Notes: generated by a model from the sequence alone, not told the origin. A stretch of DNA of 64,000 bases from Pyrinomonadaceae bacterium (GCA_014534425.1 JACVRN010000003.1:11391-75390), one strand, 5' to 3'; shown: positions 3,876-30,182, counted from the first letter of the stretch. Made by a program: numbers and translations.

Positions 3876-4952
3876 ATGGCTGATTCTCTATTTCCACAAA
3901 CAAAAAGGCTGGGGCGATTGGCGGTTCTCTGCCTGTTGACTATAAGTCTTCTGACGGCACAGGGCTGCAAGACTCTGTTCGGCGACATTGCCAAACGCAC
4001 AGTCACAGTGCCGCCGCTTCTCAAGCCGCTTCAAACGGCGACCTCTGATCAACTTATCGCGGAGGTTAATCGCGTGGCCGCCGTGCGCTCTCTGCGCGGC
4101 AGGGTCGACATAGAATTTCAGGACACGTCGTTTTCGGAATTCGGCATCAACGACAAGTACCGCACGGCTGAAGGCTCCGTCATAGTGCAGCGACCCGGAC
4201 AGGTTTATCTTGAGGTCAACGGCCCGTTCGGCGTTGAGATAGCGCGCATGACTTCGGACGGCGAGCATTTCCGCGTGGCCGTTCTCAAGGGCGACGACAA
4301 GTATCGCCGCTTTGTGAAGGGCACGAACAACGCGCGCTATCAAACCTTCGAGATGGGCGACGGCGAGGCGGCGCGTGATAAAGAGAAGATGAGCGAGCAG
4401 CGAGCCGTCAGCGCGCTCTCGAATCTCCGCCCGCAGCATTTGACGGATGCTCTCCTGGTTCGTCCAATAATGTTGGAAAAGAACGTGCTGCCTAAAGTCG
4501 TCTACACGCAGAGCGAGTTTTACGAAGAGGAAGCCGCGCCGAATACGGGAGATAAACAGGCGCGCTCGAATAAGACGGGCCGCGTTGTGCGCGGCTACTA
4601 TTTTCTGGATGAGATAGTTGAAGCCACGGACGGTCGCGCTCATCTAACGCGCCGTTTCTGGTTCGACCGCGTGAACGGCATACGCTTCGCGCGCATGCAG
4701 ACCTTCGACGAGCAGGGCGACCTCGTCACGGATGTTACTTACAGCAACACGAAACCCTTCGGCGAAGGCGCACGCGTTAATCTGCCTTCGCGCATAGAGC
4801 TGTCGCGCCCGCATGACGGATACAAACTGGCCCTCACCTATCAATCGCCGGAAGAGGCCATAGTCGATCGTCAATATCAGCCGGACATCTTTATCCTTGA
4901 AAACAAGTGGCAACTGCGCGAAGTCGATTTGGACGAGCGACAAAAGAAGTGA
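3876..4952 (+). CDS. Lipoprotein, LolB/DUF4292-like lipoprotein-sorting fold (family-level guess)
   Basis: Lipobox (LLTISLLTAQGC) after the internal ATG at 3876. The central region resembles the LolA/LolB-like beta-fold pattern. Its stop abuts the FtsX permease start at 4953. Confidence 0.55.
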   Translation: MADSLFPQTKRLGRLAVLCLLTISLLTAQGCKTLFGDIAKRTVTVPPLLKPLQTATSDQLIAEVNRVAAVRSLRGRVDIEFQDTSFSEFGINDKYRTAEGSVIVQRPGQVYLEVNGPFGVEIARMTSDGEHFRVAVLKGDDKYRRFVKGTNNARYQTFEMGDGEAARDKEKMSEQRAVSALSNLRPQHLTDALLVRPIMLEKNVLPKVVYTQSEFYEEEAAPNTGDKQARSNKTGRVVRGYYFLDEIVEATDGRAHLTRRFWFDRVNGIRFARMQTFDEQGDLVTDVTYSNTKPFGEGARVNLPSRIELSRPHDGYKLALTYQSPEEAIVDRQYQPDIFILENKWQLREVDLDERQKK

Positions 4953-6089
4953 ATGGATAATCTGGTCACAGCAAATATCAGGCAGAGACCTTTGCGCTCG
5001 CTGGTGAGTGTGGCGGGGGTGGCGTTGGGCGTGGCGCTGGTGATGCTGTTTACCGGACTCTCGCGCGGGATGTCGAATGACCTTAAGCGGCGCTCTCAGA
5101 ATCTGCGCGCGGAGATAATCTTTACGCGCCCAGGCTCTATGGAGTTGACAAGCTCTACGGCCAACCTGAGCACGAAATACGTGGAGCGCCTGCAAGCCGT
5201 GGATGGCGTGCAGTCGGCTGTGCCCGTGATTCGTTACATCTCGCAGGGCAAGAGCGGGTTCGGTCTTGAGCAGATAGAGGGCGTTGACTGGGAGCCTTTC
5301 GCCAGGATGAACGAGATTCAACTCATCGCCGGGCGCGCCCCGCAATCGGTTGACCCTGCGAGCGCGGATGACCCGAACACGCCGGGCGAAGTCGTCATTG
5401 ATGAAAGAAAAGCTTCGAGCAATAACCTCTCGGTCGGGAGCGAAATCAAGCTCTTCGGTGACAAGCCCTTTAAAGTCGTGGGCATCTATGCTCCTGAATC
5501 CGGCGCTCGCGTCAAGATGAGCCTGAGCGCCATGCAGAGAGAACTGGAATCTGCGGGCAAGTGTCAGTACATTCTTGTCAAATGCAAAGACGGAGTGGGC
5601 GAAATAACGGTCGCTCAGCGCATAGAGGCCGCGCCGGAGACGAAGGGCAACAAGATTCAGTTCACGCGCGATGTCTTCAAGGGCATTGAAAGCAGCATCC
5701 CTTACCTGGGAGTCTTCCTGCGCGTGCTAGTGGGCTTGGCCGCGCTGGTGAGCGCGCTCATAGTCATGCTCGCCATGTACACTACGATTACAGAGCGCAC
5801 GCGCGAGATAGGAATTCTGAAAGCCCTCGGAGCATCGCGCGCCTACATCGTCGGCGTGATAGAGAAAGAGGCCATACTAATCAGCGTGCTTGGACTCGTC
5901 ACAGGTTTCGTGGCTGCGTTCGTCGCGGGCTTCATGATTCAACGAGCCTACGGTCTTGTTTTCGAATACGGTTGGGGATGGGCTTTGACTTCAGCCGCCA
6001 TAGGACTTCTGGGCGGAGTCCTGGGCGCTCTTTATCCGGCTGTACGCGCAGCTAATCTTGATCCGGTGAGCGCTATATCTTATGAATAA
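4953..6089 (+). CDS. ABC transporter permease, FtsX/MacB/LolC-E type
   Basis: N-terminal TM segment, a large periplasmic domain and a C-terminal FtsX-like 3-TM block (ERTREIGILKALGA). Confidence 0.8.
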   Translation: MDNLVTANIRQRPLRSLVSVAGVALGVALVMLFTGLSRGMSNDLKRRSQNLRAEIIFTRPGSMELTSSTANLSTKYVERLQAVDGVQSAVPVIRYISQGKSGFGLEQIEGVDWEPFARMNEIQLIAGRAPQSVDPASADDPNTPGEVVIDERKASSNNLSVGSEIKLFGDKPFKVVGIYAPESGARVKMSLSAMQRELESAGKCQYILVKCKDGVGEITVAQRIEAAPETKGNKIQFTRDVFKGIESSIPYLGVFLRVLVGLAALVSALIVMLAMYTTITERTREIGILKALGASRAYIVGVIEKEAILISVLGLVTGFVAAFVAGFMIQRAYGLVFEYGWGWALTSAAIGLLGGVLGALYPAVRAANLDPVSAISYE

Positions 6090-6168
6090 GCTTTCAGCCG
6101 TCAGCCATCAGCATTCAGCCAGCAATGACTGAAGAAAAGCTGATAGCTGAAAGCTGATAGCTGACTGC
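6090..6168. repeat. Family-A hairpin, arms made of (NNTCAGC)n heptads
   Basis: TTTCAGC CGTCAGC CATCAGC ATTCAGC faces GCTGATA GCTGAAA GCTGATA GCTGACT. It begins 1 nt after the permease stop codon. Confidence 0.8.
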
Positions 6169-6173
6169 TCTAA

Positions 6174-6869
6174 ATGAGAACTATCCTTAAAGCTGAGAAC
6201 CTGGTGAAGACGTATCGCGTCGGGCAGGTGGACGTGCAGGCTTTGCGCGGCGTCTCGCTGGACGTGCAGGAGGGAGAGTTCTTAGCCATCATGGGGCCGT
6301 CGGGCTGCGGCAAGTCAACCATGCTGCACCTGCTCGGAGGACTTCTGACGCCCACTAGCGGGCGCATCATTATTGACGATGAAGACCTGACGGCTGCGAC
6401 TGACGCCCGCCGCACGGACATACGACGGCGCAAGATTGGCTTTGTCTTTCAGCGCTTCAATCTCTTCCCGACGCTCACAGCCGAAGGCAACCTGCGGCTG
6501 GCCGAGCGCATACACGGCGGCAACGGTGCTGACGACCCCGAAAGACGCAGAGAGGTTCTGCGACTGCTTCGGCTGGAAGACAAGATGCATCACAAGCCGC
6601 TTGAACTGTCGGGCGGCGAACAGCAGAGAGTCGCCCTGGCGCGTGCTGTGGTGACTCGCCCTGCGATTGTGCTGGCGGACGAGCCTACAGGGAATCTGGA
6701 TTCGGAGAACTCGGCGCTCGTGCTCAACATGTTTCAGGAGTTGAACTACCGCTTCAACCAGACCATCATCATGATTACGCACAACCCGGAGGCCGCAGCC
6801 ATGTGCCGCCGCATCATACAAATGCGCGACGGGCGGATTGTGGATTCGACGGGCGGCGTTTTGCTGTAG
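6174..6869 (+). CDS. ABC transporter ATP-binding protein (LolD/MacB-like)
   Basis: Walker [10 protein letters not shown], signature [14 protein letters not shown], Walker [13 protein letters not shown]. Confidence 0.9.
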
Positions 6870-7103
6870 GAGGACTGGAGGCTGAAGGACAGCCTTATCA
6901 AGATGCTTTAAGTCAGGATCACGCAGCCATAGGGGATGAAAGAGTGTCGGCTGAGCTGAACTATATTGATGGTGACACTAATGCTCAGAAGATTATCACT
7001 TAGGGCATCAGAAACAGGTTGAAGTCGGCTTTTCAGACACCCTCTATAACCTCACAATGAAATCTCCCGCCCGCAAGCAGCGTAGTCTGATATAGAGGCC
7101 CGC

Positions 7104-7762
7104 TTGAGCCATCCGGCAGTCCGGCACAAATTTTCCATTTTTCATCTTTTCATTGACAATAGCTGCTGCCCGTCAAGTAGCGGATGCTCCAGAACCGAGG
7201 CTTTCATCTCCAGGTGTTACTCCTACGGCGGGGATTACGACGACTTCAGTTGCACTTGTACGGGTTGCGACTGGTGTGGAGGCTCGCCTGTTCTGATAGA
7301 TGTTGCGGGCGACGGGTTGGCGCTGACTGGCGTTCAGGGCGGTGTCACTTTTGATCTTAACGGTAACGGCACAAGAGATAAGCTATCATGGACAAACGTC
7401 GGTTCGGATGACGCGTGGCTTGCTCTAGACCGTGATGGCAACGGGACAATAGACAGGGGTTCCGAATTATTCGGCGATTTCACGCCTCAGCCCGCTTCAT
7501 CCACGCCGAACGGTTTTCTAGCTCTCGCAGAGTTTGATAAAACAGAAAATTGGGCGTGAAATCTATCTCGCTCGATTACAGGCTGTCAAAGAAAACTGAC
7601 GAATTCGGTAATGAGTTTCGCTACCGGGCGAAGGTTAGAGATGCAAAGGGATTGCAAGTAGGACGCTGGGCATGGTGTATGGATTTTCAAATAAAATTAT
7701 CCATAGAGGTTCCATATCTCTCCGCCCACAGAAAGCTTGTTGCACTTTACAAACTGCTATAA
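7104..7762 (+). pseudogene. Decayed remnant of a secreted Asp/Asn/Gly-rich (calcium-binding-like DxDxNG) repeat protein
   Basis: The sequence is split over two frames (7104-7559 and 7550-7762). The first frame ends ...[11 protein letters not shown] and the second resumes (L)[28 protein letters not shown]. No signal peptide is present, and the region is locally AT-richer. Confidence 0.5.
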
Positions 7763-7803
7763 CCCTCTGTTATTTCCCTTATTTTTCCCTTATAATTCAG
7801 GCC

Positions 7804-8148
7804 GTGCAGTATCTTTTGCGAACTCTCAAGAAGCTTCTCTTCTGGTCATATGGGCGCAGCACGTGGCAGTACGATGTTTTGTGCGCGCTCATACTGGTCT
7901 TCATCTTCCTGACGCCTCAAAGCTGGTTTCGCACAGGCGAACTCAGGCAGGTAGAGGCGCATCCAACACCTTCTGCTCGCACGTATCTGCTTGTGGAGCC
8001 TTCTGAAAAGGGTGTGCAAATTGACAGAGCGGAACTGGAACGCCGCGTGCGTAGCGCAACGGGGAGGCCCGAAGTTACGGTCACAGGCTGGCAGCCCAGG
8101 CGTGACGAGCAGGGACGCGTGGTCGCCTACGAGGTTGACATACGCTAA
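7804..8148 (+). CDS. Hypothetical small membrane protein
   Basis: An in-frame GTG at 7804 precedes a TM segment (YDVLCALILVFIFLTP). A TATAAT at 7791-7796 lies just upstream. The 5' extension back to 7672 runs through the decayed region. Confidence 0.4.
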   Translation: MQYLLRTLKKLLFWSYGRSTWQYDVLCALILVFIFLTPQSWFRTGELRQVEAHPTPSARTYLLVEPSEKGVQIDRAELERRVRSATGRPEVTVTGWQPRRDEQGRVVAYEVDIR

Positions 8149-26413: not shown

Positions 26414-26821
26414 CTAGATTCCGCTCTCTGATTTTCGCAGCGTCCGCCATCCGGGCTGAAGCCTGACCCAGTATGCCATCAGTAGCCCGACCACTATGTA
26501 GATAAAAGTCAGCGCGATGCTCAGGTAAGTGATGCGGCGGTTGGCCGTCAGAGCGTCGACTCCCTGGCCCGGCTCGAAGACATACATGATGGGGATGAAG
26601 GCGAAGATGAGCGAAATCAGGCACCAGACCGCGAGCACCACCACGGCCTTGATGACGATTGTGCCGCGCCCGTCGCTCGCACGCGCGAAGTTTATGACGG
26701 AGCGTATGATGACGTAGAGGGGAAACAGGACTGCGACCGCCGCGAAGGTGTAGAGCGTAAGCATGCCTATGATGTCTTCAATCTTCATCGAATCACCTTG
26801 AGCTTCGTACGAACTTTGCAA
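26414..26821 (-). CDS. Hypothetical 4-TM membrane protein
   Basis: 135 aa with four hydrophobic segments. It is the first gene of the minus-strand ABC cluster. Confidence 0.5.
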   Translation of the reverse strand: MQSSYEAQGDSMKIEDIIGMLTLYTFAAVAVLFPLYVIIRSVINFARASDGRGTIVIKAVVVLAVWCLISLIFAFIPIMYVFEPGQGVDALTANRRITYLSIALTFIYIVVGLLMAYWVRLQPGWRTLRKSESGI

Positions 26822-26846
26822 GAGCTTTTTAACCCGCGAGGCCCTT

Positions 26847-26854
26847 CCGGCGGT
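26847..26854. repeat. Target-site duplication, left copy (CCGGCGGT)
   Basis: An identical 8-mer directly abuts both terminal inverted repeats of the element. Confidence 0.85.
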
Positions 26855-26878
26855 GGTAGTGTCCTAAAAGTGTGTTGC

Positions 26879-27043
26879 TCACTTTGCTATGAAAGAAATA
26901 ACTTGGTCGAAGTTTAAGAGTATTTCTTGACCGTTATTATTAACCCACCACCACATTTTCCATTCGTACTTAATAACTGTAATGTCTAAAATGTTACCAT
27001 TAGAACAAGTGACTTTATAACTTTTACCATTCTCAAGAAACAT
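26879..27043 (-). CDS. Untracked 54-aa ORF coupled to the transposase gene
   Basis: MFLENGKSYKVTCSNGNILDITVIKYEWKMWWWVNNNGQEILLNFDQVISFIAK. An AAGGAG overlaps the transposase TAA stop, 8 nt before the ATG at 27043. The ORF's TGA stop lies inside the left terminal IR. Confidence 0.45.
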   Translation of the reverse strand: MFLENGKSYKVTCSNGNILDITVIKYEWKMWWWVNNNGQEILLNFDQVISFIAK

Positions 27044-27056
27044 AACAAAATCTCCT

Positions 27057-28001
27057 TTAGGCGTGTAGTAAGTCTTTCAAGCTCCAAACTGTTTTAGTCA
27101 ATCCTGCTTCCATAGCTGGGGTACAACGGATTGTAGAATGAAGCCTGCAAAAATTATAGAACGCGAAGTGCAGAGCAAGCGCAGCTTTCATGTTTGACCA
27201 TTTCTTAGAGAAAGCGTTTGTTAATCTAGTCAAGCGGCGCGTGGACATTCTAAGCGTTAAGTTCTGTCTTTCGATGTGCGAAGTGTTGATTCGTTCGGGG
27301 TCTGGATTACCGATAACGGGAATCTTCTTTGCTCCGATACATTCAGCCGGAGAATAGCGTCTCTCGCCTTCTGGATTCTGCGCGTACATCTTCACTAATT
27401 GAGCATAATCAACGCGAGTGCCTAAGCTATGAGAAACAGCGTCAGGATAGCCACCAAAGCCGTCTGTGGTTAATTGAAAGTGCGTGCCTGTAGCAAGGTA
27501 TAGCTTTTCGATGAAAGCGTGAGTGTCGCTTGCTGTACGCCTTCCAAGATGCCAAGCAAGAATTAACTTTGTATCACGGTCTATCGCTATGAATGTATAA
27601 CAGTCTCCGATTGTTTCATCGTTCAGGTCTTGACGCTTCTTTGTCTTTTCCTTCATCTGAATGAAGCCCCAAATCTCATCAGCTTGAACGTCTTTGACAG
27701 GCACATTCTTAATCTTCTCTTCAAGCAATCTTTCACACTTCCCGCCAACATGTATCAGTAAGTCCAGTACGGTGTCACGGTGTACGCCAGTGATTCTTTC
27801 TATGCTTCTAACTGAGCAGCCTTCAAGTAGGAGCTTGAGGCACATGACGGCTTTTTCTTCTGCAAGGTACATAGAGCCAAGCGGCTTGTCTTTCGGCTCT
27901 AGGAATGTCACGCCACAATCCAAGCAACGGTAACGCTGATTGCCTTTGCGGTCTTTGCCGAAGCGTTTGAAGTTTGATGAAGAGCAAGACGTACAGTTCA
28001 T
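27057..28001 (-). CDS. IS1-family transposase (single-ORF type with N-terminal zinc ribbon)
   Basis: The zinc ribbon is CTSC...YRCLDCG. The DDE region (QADEIWGFI, LTTDGFGGY, IERQNLTLR...RLTNAFSKK) parallels E. coli IS1 InsB (EMDEQWGYV, MTDGWPLY, IERHNLNLRQ...SLSFSKS). Confidence 0.85.
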   Translation of the reverse strand: MNCTSCSSSNFKRFGKDRKGNQRYRCLDCGVTFLEPKDKPLGSMYLAEEKAVMCLKLLLEGCSVRSIERITGVHRDTVLDLLIHVGGKCERLLEEKIKNVPVKDVQADEIWGFIQMKEKTKKRQDLNDETIGDCYTFIAIDRDTKLILAWHLGRRTASDTHAFIEKLYLATGTHFQLTTDGFGGYPDAVSHSLGTRVDYAQLVKMYAQNPEGERRYSPAECIGAKKIPVIGNPDPERINTSHIERQNLTLRMSTRRLTRLTNAFSKKWSNMKAALALHFAFYNFCRLHSTIRCTPAMEAGLTKTVWSLKDLLHA

Positions 28002-28010
28002 ATTTTCTCC

Positions 28011-28099
28011 TGTGTTGCTAAGTTGCTATTATGCTTGAGAACTCAAATTAAGTCAAGCATAAAGTACCGTAGCAACACAAATTAACGATTTATCGTTAA
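28011..28099. promoter_or_regulatory. Three dyad symmetries in the divergent transposase / HTH-peptidase control region
   Basis: Outer dyad: TGTGTTGCTA (28011-28020) / TAGCAACACA (28070-28079). Inner dyad: TTATGCTTGA (28029-28038) / TCAAGCATAA (28053-28062). Third dyad: TTAACGAT-tt-ATCGTTAA (28082-28099). Confidence 0.55.
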
Positions 28100-28114
28100 T
28101 CCGTAATTTCCACA

Positions 28115-28143
28115 TTGACACAGAACCTATACGTGTGTAAAGT
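28115..28143 (+). promoter_or_regulatory. Candidate sigma70 promoter for the HTH-M78 gene
   Basis: TTGACA (28115-28120), a 17-nt spacer, then TAAAGT (28138-28143). A GGAGG ribosome-binding site lies about 8 nt before the ATG at 28183. Confidence 0.5.
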
Positions 28144-28182
28144 GCTGATGACTTTCATAATTTACCAACGGAGGAACCAGAT

Positions 28183-29283
28183 ATGACAGATATGAAAGTA
28201 TTTCCCCCAAGCAAGTACATTAAAGAAGCTTTAGAGGGGCGCGGCTGGAATCAAACCGACTTAGCGTTGATTTTAGGGAGAGGCGCTAAATTTGTTAGTG
28301 ACCTTGTTACAGATAAGAAAAGAGTAGACCCGGAAATTGCTCAGGAATTGGCAGTAGTCTTTAACACAACACCGCAGTATTGGCTTGAACTGGAAAACAC
28401 ATTTAGGTTAGCCCAAACAGATTATGTAGATGAAGCTATCGAAAAGCGAACTAAGCTATTAACGAACTATCCTATTAAAGAGATGCAAAAGCGTGGCTGG
28501 ATTAGTCAGACCGAAAAGCTAGAAGAACTTGAGCCAGAACTTAAAAAGTTTTTTGAAAAAGACGATTTAGAAAAGGATGTAGAACTAAGAGTATCTTACA
28601 AACGAACGGGCAAAGAGGCTAACGCAAATGCGGCTGAAAAGGCCTGGCTTTATCGAGCAAAGCACCTCGCAAGGATGTTACCCGTAGCAGTTTTTGACAT
28701 CAATACTATAGATAAGTTGATAGCGCATCTACGAAAGCTTGCGGCAAAGTCAGGTGCGGTTGTTCGTGTTGCCGAGGCGCTTGCTAACTATGGCATTCGG
28801 TTCGTAGTAGTTGAGCCTCTTCCGAGAGCAAAGATTGATGGGGCGGCATTCTGGCTTGATGAAAATTCGCCAGTTATAGCCATGTCACTTCGCTTTAATA
28901 ACATAGGTAATTTTTGGTTTACCTTAATGCACGAACTCTCTCACATCAAACACAGAGATGCTTTTTCCTTAGATGACTTAGAGGCTTCACCATCTGATGA
29001 AACCGAAATAAGGGCTAATAAAGAGGCGGCAAATGCTCTAGTACCAGAAGAACGGCTGGAAAAATTTATCAAGATGTATTCCCCGTATTATTCGGAAGCG
29101 CGAATCAATAATTTGGCGACGCAGTTAAACATTCATCCTGGAATAATTGTAGGCCAGCTACAGTACCGAAAAGAAGTCGCATACAACACACACACGAAAA
29201 TAATGCCAAAGGTGCGGGAACTGGCTACTACTTCGGCATTTACGGATGGCTGGGGGCATCCAATTCCACAAGTCAGATACTAA
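28183..29283 (+). CDS. Fusion of XRE/HigA-like HTH with ImmA/IrrE (M78, COG2856) zinc metallopeptidase
   Basis: The N-terminal HTH (GWNQTDLALILGRGAKFVSDLVTDKKRVDPEIAQELAVVFNTTPQYWLELENTF) resembles HigA antitoxins. The C-terminal domain has HELSHIKHRD (HExxH). Confidence 0.8.
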   Translation: MTDMKVFPPSKYIKEALEGRGWNQTDLALILGRGAKFVSDLVTDKKRVDPEIAQELAVVFNTTPQYWLELENTFRLAQTDYVDEAIEKRTKLLTNYPIKEMQKRGWISQTEKLEELEPELKKFFEKDDLEKDVELRVSYKRTGKEANANAAEKAWLYRAKHLARMLPVAVFDINTIDKLIAHLRKLAAKSGAVVRVAEALANYGIRFVVVEPLPRAKIDGAAFWLDENSPVIAMSLRFNNIGNFWFTLMHELSHIKHRDAFSLDDLEASPSDETEIRANKEAANALVPEERLEKFIKMYSPYYSEARINNLATQLNIHPGIIVGQLQYRKEVAYNTHTKIMPKVRELATTSAFTDGWGHPIPQVRY

Positions 29284-29293
29284 GGAGTAGAGA

Positions 29294-29797
29294 ATGGATT
29301 ACAACACCAGAATGGCAGACATCATGCGGGAATGGCAGATGGAAACTGGCGCAGATGCGATAGATGTTGATGCTGCTTCCGCTTGGGCTATAGAGACGGG
29401 TAGGTATCAGCGAAAACCTCCTTCAATGCAGCAATTATGCAAGCAGGATATGAAGAGGGCACTACAGCATTCGCGCTATACAGACCCGCAAGGGAATGTG
29501 ATACGAACCATGCACGCGGTTAGACTCCCTTATCACGGCGAGCAACTTACGTTTTATATTGATATTAGAGTAGCGAAGCCGGATATTACGCAGATGTCGT
29601 TTGACCAGAACTTTCAGCGAATCGGCAATGATGTTAAGCGCCATAGTATTGAAAAACATTCCTATGACATAAACAATCCTTATGGCGCGACGCTTCCGGC
29701 CTATGACTACGACTTTAATCAGCACGCCGAAGATGCCCGTATGTCAGGCGAGTATGATGATACGTATGAAGATGATGGGGATGATGAGCTAGATTAG
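29294..29797 (+). CDS. Hypothetical 167-aa protein with an acidic C-terminal tail; family not recognised
   Basis: It starts 10 nt after the HTH-M78 stop, so the two genes look like an operon. It ends ...EYDDTYEDDGDDELD. Confidence 0.55.
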   Translation: MDYNTRMADIMREWQMETGADAIDVDAASAWAIETGRYQRKPPSMQQLCKQDMKRALQHSRYTDPQGNVIRTMHAVRLPYHGEQLTFYIDIRVAKPDITQMSFDQNFQRIGNDVKRHSIEKHSYDINNPYGATLPAYDYDFNQHAEDARMSGEYDDTYEDDGDDELD

Positions 29798-30060
29798 CTT
29801 TCGGTGCTACGCGCATTCCATCTTGCCTTCGCTGCTTTCTTAGCGATAGCAGAGCGTTCCTTTGCAGATAGTTTCTGCGCTCTGGCCTTACCACCCTTAG
29901 ACCCGCCTTTCTGTCCACGCCGGACAGCCTGCGGGTCTTTCTCTTTGACGGGCTGCGGTTCGGCTTCTGTTTCTTCTATAATGAAGTCCAGAATCGCTTT
30001 GGCAAACTGATTCTCGTCTGTGATGCGTTTCCGGCTCTTTTTGCTAGACCGCTTTGGCAT
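29794..30060 (-). CDS. Lys/Arg-rich 88-aa protein (possible nucleic-acid binder)
   Basis: It reads MPKRSSKKSRKR...KGGSKGGKARAQKLSAKERSAIAKKAAKARW. Its stop codon overlaps the stop of the convergent 167-aa gene. No clear ribosome-binding site is seen. Confidence 0.45.
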   Translation of the reverse strand: MPKRSSKKSRKRITDENQFAKAILDFIIEETEAEPQPVKEKDPQAVRRGQKGGSKGGKARAQKLSAKERSAIAKKAAKARWNARSTES

Positions 30061-30136
30061 GAGTGAGATATAGCACAGCCGGATTTAGAAGGCTAGAAAT
30101 AGTTCAGAGTCAGCAACACAGATTTAGGACACTACC

Positions 30137-30144
30137 CCGGCGGT
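30137..30144. repeat. Target-site duplication, right copy (CCGGCGGT)
   Basis: Identical to 26847-26854 and directly abuts the right IR. Confidence 0.85.
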
Positions 30145-30182
30145 TATTGTATATGCATGGCGGATGATAAAATAGGGCTGTA

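Follow-up and report, generated by a model that had tools for sequence, protein, structure and literature searches.

A probable transporter insertion sequence of the IS1 family with an exchangeable cargo slot in a Pyrinomonadaceae bacterium

Structure and boundaries of the element

The DNA analysed here, referred to as the window, is a stretch of 64,000 nucleotides from a Pyrinomonadaceae bacterium (GCA_014534425.1, JACVRN010000003.1:11391-75390), and all positions are counted from its first letter. The window contains a segment of 3,282 bp (26855-30136) which holds a transposase gene, two cargo genes and two small open reading frames (ORFs), enclosed by terminal inverted repeats (IRs) and target-site duplications (TSDs). 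We read this segment as very probably a complete, horizontally acquired "transporter IS" (tIS), a term used in PMC7986276 for insertion sequences (IS) with passenger genes. Its features are listed in Table 1.

Table 1. Features of the element and its borders (position in the window, strand, and sequence or basis of the assignment)
Feature	Position	Strand	Sequence or basis
Left TSD copy, 8 bp	26847-26854	.	CCGGCGGT, same as 30137-30144
IRL, terminal IR at transposase end	26855-26879	+	GGTAGTGTCCTAAAAGTGTGTTGCT, read from sequence
54-aa orphan ORF in second variable slot, downstream of transposase	26879-27043	-	ORF listing
IS1-family DDE transposase, single ORF, 314 aa	27057-28001	-	Curated family models and IS1A alignment
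IR-core copy between transposase -10 box and start codon	28011-28019	+	TGTGTTGCT; candidate autoregulatory site
Predicted transposase promoter	28028-28056	-	TTGACT-17-CATAAT; promoter scan 10/12
Dyad around transposase promoter	28030-28038 / 28053-28061	.	TATGCTTGA / TCAAGCATA; sequence
Second IR-core copy, inverted, upstream of transposase -35 box	28071-28079	+	AGCAACACA; sequence
Perfect dyad abutting cargo -35 box	28081-28100	.	ATTAACGAT-TT-ATCGTTAAT; candidate Xre HTH operator
Predicted cargo-operon promoter	28115-28143	+	TTGACA-17-TAAAGT; promoter scan 10/12; TTGACA conserved in L020 and L022
Cargo gene 1, 366 aa: HigA-like Xre HTH (residues ~9-88) and M78 (ImmA/IrrE) metallopeptidase	28183-29283	+	Pfam HTH_3, Peptidase_M78
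Cargo gene 2 (orf167), 167 aa, acidic (pI 4.7), conserved Asp/Glu-rich tail	29294-29797	+	ORF listing, homologues
orfS, 88 aa, basic (pI 10.5), all-helical model	29794-30060	-	Fixed companion gene
IRR, terminal IR at orfS end	30112-30136	-	Reverse complement GGTAGTGTCCTAAATCTGTGTTGCT
Right TSD copy, 8 bp	30137-30144	.	CCGGCGGT

Read directly from the sequence, the two 25-bp IRs match at 23 of 25 positions and are abutted on both flanks by the identical 8-mer, as the initial annotation had claimed. Both termini read GGTAGTG and conform to the GGnnnTG rule of IS1, as do those of IS1A (GGTAATG and GGTGATG). A search of the window for the IR pattern with up to three mismatches returned just two sites, the ends of the element, and none was found in 100 shuffles. 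The interior had been estimated by eye to be poor in G+C, which the calculation bears out: the fraction is 0.44 in the element and 0.57 in the remaining window, where the lowest value of any equal-sized segment is 0.537. The described ORFs of 54, 314, 366, 167 and 88 aa are all present. Counting four of them as extra cargo was right as to their existence, but the 88-aa ORF is a core gene and the 54-aa ORF is without homologues.

The two mismatches between the IRs recur elsewhere. In a related element (L031; related loci are cited below by such numbers) with transposase 92% identical to that of the window, the IRs differ in the same end-specific manner, with ...AAATC... on the side of the small ORF and ...AAAAG... 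on that of the transposase. Because L031 has the same differences, the mismatches are ancestral and not a sign of decay. The IRR sequence is also identical to IRs of L015, L032, L033 and L038.

Insertion site

The element interrupts the short spacer that separates two divergent genes, rlmN and a gene for a small membrane protein located beside an ABC-transporter gene. In five genomes of the same genus, the ABC ATPase gene and rlmN are neighbours only a few hundred bases apart, and none of these genomes contains the 3.3 kb. The synteny at this locus is thus kept without the element, as expected for an insertion. These relatives are approximately 80-84% identical and their left spacer has diverged, so the empty sites are defined at genus level and not exactly: at the position of the left TSD there is merely a short intergenic spacer. 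In two of these genomes (G005 and G002) homology restarts at query base 4768, equivalent to window position 30145, the first base past the right TSD, and the right flank (TATTGTATATGCAT...) is conserved from that position onward in the aligned spacers.

The spacer split by the insertion comprises about 100 bp between two divergent genes (26789-26854 and 30145-30182). A block upstream of rlmN (TATTGTATATGCAT.GCGG.TGATAAAATAGG), conserved in same-genus genomes, begins exactly at the insertion point. If this block is the rlmN promoter, the insertion has probably left it intact. As to the membrane-protein gene on the other side, the listed ORF of 135 aa (26414-26821, minus strand) begins at TTG; judging by conservation in G005 and G002 (TTCATCGAATCACCT), translation more likely starts from an internal ATG, at position 26788, and yields a membrane protein of about 124 aa. 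The genomes G001 and G003 do not have this gene at the locus.

Transposase and its family

Family models place the transposase in IS1, in agreement with the initial annotation. The protein passes both curated IS1 models, NCBIfam NF033558 (transpos_IS1; 104.3 bits, cut-off 100) and Pfam PF03400 (DDE_Tnp_IS1; 28.2 bits, cut-off 24.1). The zinc-ribbon model NF050000, common to IS1 and IS1595, is also exceeded (44.5 bits, cut-off 28). On the contrary, the DDE models of IS1595 (PF12762 and the NCBIfam IS1595 model) gave no match at E <= 0.1 in Pfam or NCBIfam. The best plasmid matches in a tblastn search are annotated as IS1 family transposases (46% identity, in Acidiphilium and Hoeflea), and more distant ones originate from cyanobacteria and Deinococcus.

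For comparison at the residue level, IS1A of E. coli K-12 (NC_000913.3, 19796-20563) served as reference IS1. The protein had been described as aligning motif for motif with InsB. This applies to the region of the E motif only (BLAST against IS1A, E = 1e-4), where residues 240-266 correspond to T..IER.NL.LR....RL.R....FSK of InsB; for the N-terminal 88 residues the counterpart is InsA instead. Residues 1-86 are 30% identical to the zinc ribbon and helix-turn-helix (HTH) of E. coli InsA (E = 4e-8). The predicted catalytic residues are D108, D180 and E244, with spacings of 72 and 64 residues as against 57 and 25 in InsB. Judging from these models and alignments, membership of the transposase in the IS1 family is supported, but outside classical IS1, in view of its single ORF, the lack of a frameshift and its wider D-D-E spacing.

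Related elements and lineage

Relatives were gathered via genome searches and via the contexts of orf167 and orfS homologues. Twelve further bounded elements of 2.7-6.5 kb were obtained, mostly from metagenome-assembled genomes (MAGs) of Blastocatellia/Pyrinomonadaceae (Acidobacteriota) and from metagenome contigs, one of them from a Chitinophagales MAG. The recurrence of the IRs beyond the window is complete among them, as all 12 have GGT(A/G)GTG... ends and perfect 8-bp TSDs. With the window copy included, perfect 8-bp TSDs at unrelated target sequences accompany 13 of 13 elements. On visual inspection, a hexamer resembling a -35 box stands 8-11 nt past the TSD, on the transposase side, at four of these 13 sites; the site in the window is not arranged in this way. 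Since IR type and perfect duplications are shared by 12 out of 12 relatives, the element type and the 8-bp stagger can be taken as settled.

In the host family the lineage is patchy and low-copy. Transposase homologues were detected in 46 of 201 sampled genomes, with one to three mutually different copies in each, some of them truncated or containing stop codons. Three more genomes contain solo or relic IRs. At L015 (G012:C6, 6714-7278), one IR and a C-terminal transposase fragment remain; L016 (G008:C159, 6741-6765) is a lone IR adjoining a 760-aa protein, and L017 (G004:C1, 7030-7054) is a solo or relic end of the same IS lineage.

Comparison of bounded elements reveals a slot between orfS and transposase whose content varies. 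In L031, which besides its similar transposase has an IR and orfS segment 80% identical to that of the window, a P63C gene replaces the two cargo genes, and DNA homology between the two elements breaks at element positions 322 and 2079. Other relatives have P63C, the product of cargo gene 1 (Xre-M78) together with P63C, an AAA_22/nSTAND ATPase, DUF3800, HicB, Fic, a HARE-HTH protein, or an antitoxin-like (dnstrm_HI1420) protein with SecB in this position. The last combination is found in L040 (GCA_936419805.1, CAKZAV010000027.1, 5001-8132), where an orfS homologue, a 122-aa ORF, the dnstrm_HI1420-type antitoxin-like protein, SecB and an IS1-like transposase follow each other on the same strand. 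This cargo resembles a toxin-antitoxin-chaperone set in the same slot; of the IRs, the left one alone was found.

Some further members of the lineage deserve mention. At L041 (ena:ERZ25039512, contig_56659, after 8109), a 3,167-bp element has GAACTTTT as its right TSD, and the flank directly beyond it begins with GGTAGTGGCGCAG, which looks like the IR of a second, abutting element, so that elements may be stacked at one target. L047 (JGI 3300069939, 5501-8028) has a 128-aa gene before Xre-M78 and genes of 79 and 204 aa after it, and its contig stops short of where the transposase would be expected. A partner similar to component A of PD-lambda-2, which the window copy is without, may be present in this version. 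A short member, L048 (ENA ERZ1292642, a 44.9-kb contig, 5501-7383), consists of orfS, a 169-aa ORF and a 281-aa transposase; its surroundings are rich in small ORFs, with matches to DnaA_C, HNH and Xre, and look like a phage or prophage.

The small genes

One small gene accompanies the transposase throughout. An orfS homologue is located about 77 nt inside the IR, in the direction of the transposase, in 10 of 11 elements regardless of the intervening genes. The orfS family comprises 2,318 members at E <= 0.001 in a 90%-clustered protein collection, and among the 120 homologues listed none has a Pfam domain or a name. Each of the eight homologues sampled was located at an end of an IS1-like element. 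The order orfS-cargo-transposase was observed in seven of these eight contexts, and the contig of the eighth ends before the transposase position. Judged by its position, orfS is a fixed core companion of the transposase lineage and not cargo.

Its AlphaFold2 model is helical (pLDDT, the predicted local distance difference test score, 79), and a fold search of this model against PDB gave nothing at E <= 0.001. The C-terminal motif GG.ARA..LS...R..IA.KAA.ARW of orfS is found as well at the start of the P63C proteins that L031 and L035 have as cargo. All ORFs of the element except orfS have Shine-Dalgarno sequences; orfS is instead preceded, 7-9 nt ahead of its start codon, by a conserved TGnTAnAn box, a configuration that suggests a leaderless or short-leader transcript.

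The 54-aa ORF downstream of the transposase has a good AAGGAG Shine-Dalgarno sequence. No family match was obtained for it in Pfam, NCBIfam, PADLOC or PHROG, and a HMMER scan of 1.84 billion representatives produced merely repeat stretches in giant proteins. In relatives this second slot is filled by unrelated genes or small ORFs. The 54-aa ORF is an orphan, perhaps not a real gene.

Cargo module

The first cargo gene combines a HigA-like Xre HTH domain, for which HigA structures are the best PDB matches, with an M78 (ImmA/IrrE) metallopeptidase. The peptidase signature is present as HELSH at residues 250-254, and HExxH is conserved in five elements. Among PADLOC profiles, PDLC03982 (PD-Lambda-2_B) matches at 175.6 bits (E = 4.7e-52), residues 9-347 aligning with profile positions 60-395 of 402; RmrA (E about 3e-7) and CapP/CapH match more weakly. 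The gene has 1,172 relatives at E <= 1e-20, with source names HigA or ImmA/IrrE.

The second gene, orf167, is well conserved, has 40 homologues and belongs to no family in Pfam, NCBIfam, PADLOC or PHROG. Its AlphaFold2 model is confident (pLDDT 89.4) and has no match at E <= 0.001 in PDB or BFVD. Profile searches against PDB sequences, made beside the fold searches with orf167 and orfS, were likewise empty.

In every context examined, orf167 is located directly downstream of the Xre-M78 gene. The layout of four genes recurs in L020, L022, L034 and L038, where the identity of orf167 drops as low as 28%. The pair is also found without transposase and orfS (L025-L030), beside AbiEi/AbiEii systems; one gene beside such a transposase-free pair we take, from its sequence, to be a putative ParB-like gene. 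In L036 the partner of Xre-M78 is swapped for a P63C protein. Judging from gene order, Xre-M78 and orf167 constitute one exchangeable two-gene module. As the family of the first gene exceeds 1,100 members and that of orf167 comprises 40, orf167 is best described as a rare partner of a common hub.

Control region

Both of the best promoter-like sites of the element are found in the 181-bp region (28002-28182) between transposase and cargo genes, and they point in divergent directions. A block upstream of the transposase gene (TCAAGCATAATAGCA..) is conserved in 7 of 11 elements compared. The first of the IR-core copies in this region falls inside a block (TCAAGCATAATAGCAACTTAGCAACACA) which the window shares without change with L031 and L034, and which L032, L033 and L035 have in near-identical form. 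Read in the direction of the transposase, its equivalent is AGCAACACA in L031, L034 and L035, GGCAACACA in L032 and AGCAACACG in L033. At the position of the second copy, L020 has AGCACCACG, which tracks its own IR core TGTGGTGCT, and L022 has ACAACACA.

The IR-like motif at 28071-28088 was also considered as a vestigial right end of a simple IS; this possibility was dismissed, as orfS stands at the far end in all relatives and the cargo is thus flanked by core genes on both sides. Because the motif co-varies with the IRs in L020, we read it as a binding site. In IS1, InsA acts at the ends of the element. By analogy, the IR-core copies (TGTGTTGCT) bracketing the transposase promoter are candidate transposase-binding sites, which suggests self-repression.

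The perfect dyad next to the cargo promoter has no fixed sequence among relatives: other dyads or repeats occupy this position in L020, L022 and the transposase-free L025. Such variation would be expected of Xre operators that co-evolve, and we infer a putative operator role for the dyad.

Interpretation and alternatives

The initial annotation had named three points on which its horizontal-insertion claim depended, namely recurrence of the IRs elsewhere, occupancy of the locus in relatives and the family of the transposase, and on all three the findings were favourable. We conclude, with a probability of roughly 0.85, that 26855-30136 is a complete, horizontally acquired transporter IS of the single-ORF IS1 branch with a swappable cargo slot. 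The element may also be mobile at present, as far as can be judged from its intactness.

Transposition would proceed by analogy with IS1. The N-terminal domain of the transposase would bind the IRs and the ends would be cleaved at GGTAGTG, a chemistry expected from family membership. Integration with an 8-bp stagger would then generate the 8-bp TSD; the duplication itself is observed. Through the IR-core copies around its promoter, the transposase would repress its own gene. The slot between orfS and transposase would hold two genes organized as an independent operon, complete with promoter and dyad operator, in which the HTH domain would autorepress the operon and the peptidase domain would control or neutralise the partner protein.

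Chances are about even that this cargo is a toxin-antitoxin (TA) or abortive-infection module of Rosmer/PD-lambda-2 type under Xre autorepression, as proposed here by analogy. Proteins combining Xre and an ImmA-type peptidase are components of TA and defence systems and have variable partners (Vassallo et al. 2022, PMC9519451; Ernits et al. 2023, PMC10440598). In particular, the combination of HTH and ImmA protease acts as an antitoxin hub for many toxins in either gene order, and HTH-ImmA modules of the NetFlax network are often encountered on mobile elements and within defence islands (Ernits et al. 2023, PMC10440598).

Several observations weigh against these interpretations. The IS1 equivalog score of 104.3 barely exceeds its cut-off of 100. 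The transposase is encoded by one 314-aa ORF, while IS1A produces it from insA/insB' via programmed -1 frameshift; the gap of 64 residues between the second D and E is much at variance with 25 in IS1A, and the conserved small gene orfS is an addition to the IS1A plan. In the host MAG (5.4 Mb in 323 contigs, 89.8% complete, the window being part of contig C198), element and transposase are present in one copy each. The exact empty site, represented by the 25-mer CTTCCGGCGGTTATTGTATATGCAT, had no match in an exact-match scan of metagenome contigs; a 33-mer of the right flank had none in these contigs either. As for the cargo, orf167 has neither a toxin-like feature nor a known fold, and the TA or defence label derives from the first gene and from context. 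No ORF of at least 40 aa that could stand for the HigB-like component A of PD-lambda-2 is listed within 28002-28182, and no PADLOC match to component C was obtained with orf167, orfS or the 54-aa ORF.

Among alternatives, the best surviving one is that of an immobile relic: the element would look intact but not transpose, and its genes would persist through recency of the insertion or useful cargo. We consider this unlikely. It agrees with the single copy in the genome, with the low numbers in the host family (one to three copies per genome), with truncated or stop-containing copies and solo IRs elsewhere, and with the failure to find an empty-site variant in metagenome contigs. Against it, the transposase of the window copy is encoded without interruption and still has D, D and E, the TSD is perfect, and the two IR differences, being common to L031, are ancestral. 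Likewise, the G+C content of 44% is not shifted toward the 57% of the host, and every ORF but orfS has a Shine-Dalgarno sequence.

The cargo pair might alternatively be the element's own switch, comparable to ImmR/ImmA of ICEBs1 or to CapH/CapP. Xre-M78 would then repress the divergent transposase promoter and cleave itself under stress or phage attack, rendering transposition inducible. Divergent genes with a common 181-bp control region containing three dyads would suit such a mechanism, as would the four-gene layout kept from 70% to 28% orf167 identity (L020, L022, L034), the weak similarity to PADLOC CapP/CapH and the ability of ImmA-type proteases to cleave HTH repressors (PMC10440598). 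We nevertheless regard it as improbable. The pair is missing from L031, L032, L033 and L035, whose transposases are 92%, 79% or 62% identical to that of the window, and it is found without transposase or orfS in L025-L030. Moreover, the perfect dyad adjoins the cargo promoter and not that of the transposase, and the sites at the latter are copies of the IR core, so that the transposase itself would be the likely protein to bind there.

Assignment to IS1595 or another zinc-finger DDE family, which could appeal to the zinc-ribbon model common to IS1 and IS1595, to weak sub-threshold matches to IS6, IS240 and rve models, and to the 8-bp TSDs and frequent passengers that IS1595 elements reportedly have according to Siguier et al. 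in 2009, is rejected as highly implausible because of the HMM (hidden Markov model) evidence, with IS1595 DDE models silent at E <= 0.1 and both IS1 models above curated cut-offs, and is also opposed by the IERxNLxLRxxxxRLxRxxxxFSK motif, which aligns with IS1A InsB, and by GGTAGTG termini resembling those of IS1.

Returning to the transporter IS of the single-ORF IS1 branch, the insertion event as such is ordinary: an uncultured soil acidobacterium acquired DNA horizontally, with clean and well-defined borders. Its value lies in its contribution to delimiting an IS1 lineage whose small protein is constant and unnamed in databases and whose cargo slot shuttles modules of TA or defence type between genomes and phyla. 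We put forward more tentatively, as a possibility somewhat short of even, that the element is a member of a very large and essentially undescribed orfS-marked IS1 lineage, that its slot exchanges TA or anti-phage modules, that orf167 is a new effector or toxin partner of Xre-M78, and that orfS is a new accessory factor of transposition. The leads of greatest use are orfS, a core protein without a name, and orf167, which is without detectable structural relative. The Xre-M78 hub and its confidently modelled partner, without match in the structure libraries searched, form a compact natural pair that lends itself to an easy test of toxicity or phage defence. Studies of autoregulation in single-ORF IS1 could make use of the neat arrangement of IR-core copies on either side of the transposase promoter.

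Comparison with known systems

The closest known counterpart of the first cargo gene is component B of PD-lambda-2, which it matches over nearly the full length, with HigA-like HTH and C-terminal peptidase. In the E. coli system, component B is toxic alone and neutralised by the HigB-like component A, and C is needed for defence (PMC9519451). The window differs in that no HigB-like A is present upstream, component C has no match, and the partner is an unrelated acidic protein of 167 aa. With RosmerTA (RmrT/RmrA), the cargo shares the organization of a two-gene module, in which a protein with HTH and ImmA/M78 protease is adjacent to a variable and often unannotated partner. The similarity to the RmrA profile is, in contrast, weak (E about 3e-7).

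At the level of the whole element, the single-ORF or ISMhu11-type IS1 subgroup and the transporter IS concept of ISfinder come into question, both of which Siguier, Gagnevin and Chandler reportedly treated in 2009. IS1 elements of ISMhu11 type have a single ORF, a longer catalytic domain, IS1-like IRs and sizes of several kb due to passengers; the window element, with its single ORF and passenger genes, may belong to this group. A literature search found no mention of ISMhu11.

Likeness to IS1A itself extends over termini and transposase. Both elements share GGT(A/G)(A/G)TG ends and target duplications of 8-9 bp, and the window transposase combines an N-terminal zinc ribbon and HTH, 30% identical to InsA, with a DDE domain containing the IER-N-L-R...FSK motif of InsB. 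Besides the single ORF and the wider D-D-E spacing, the element differs from IS1A in its size, 3.3 kb as opposed to 768 bp, and in the presence of passenger genes along with orfS.

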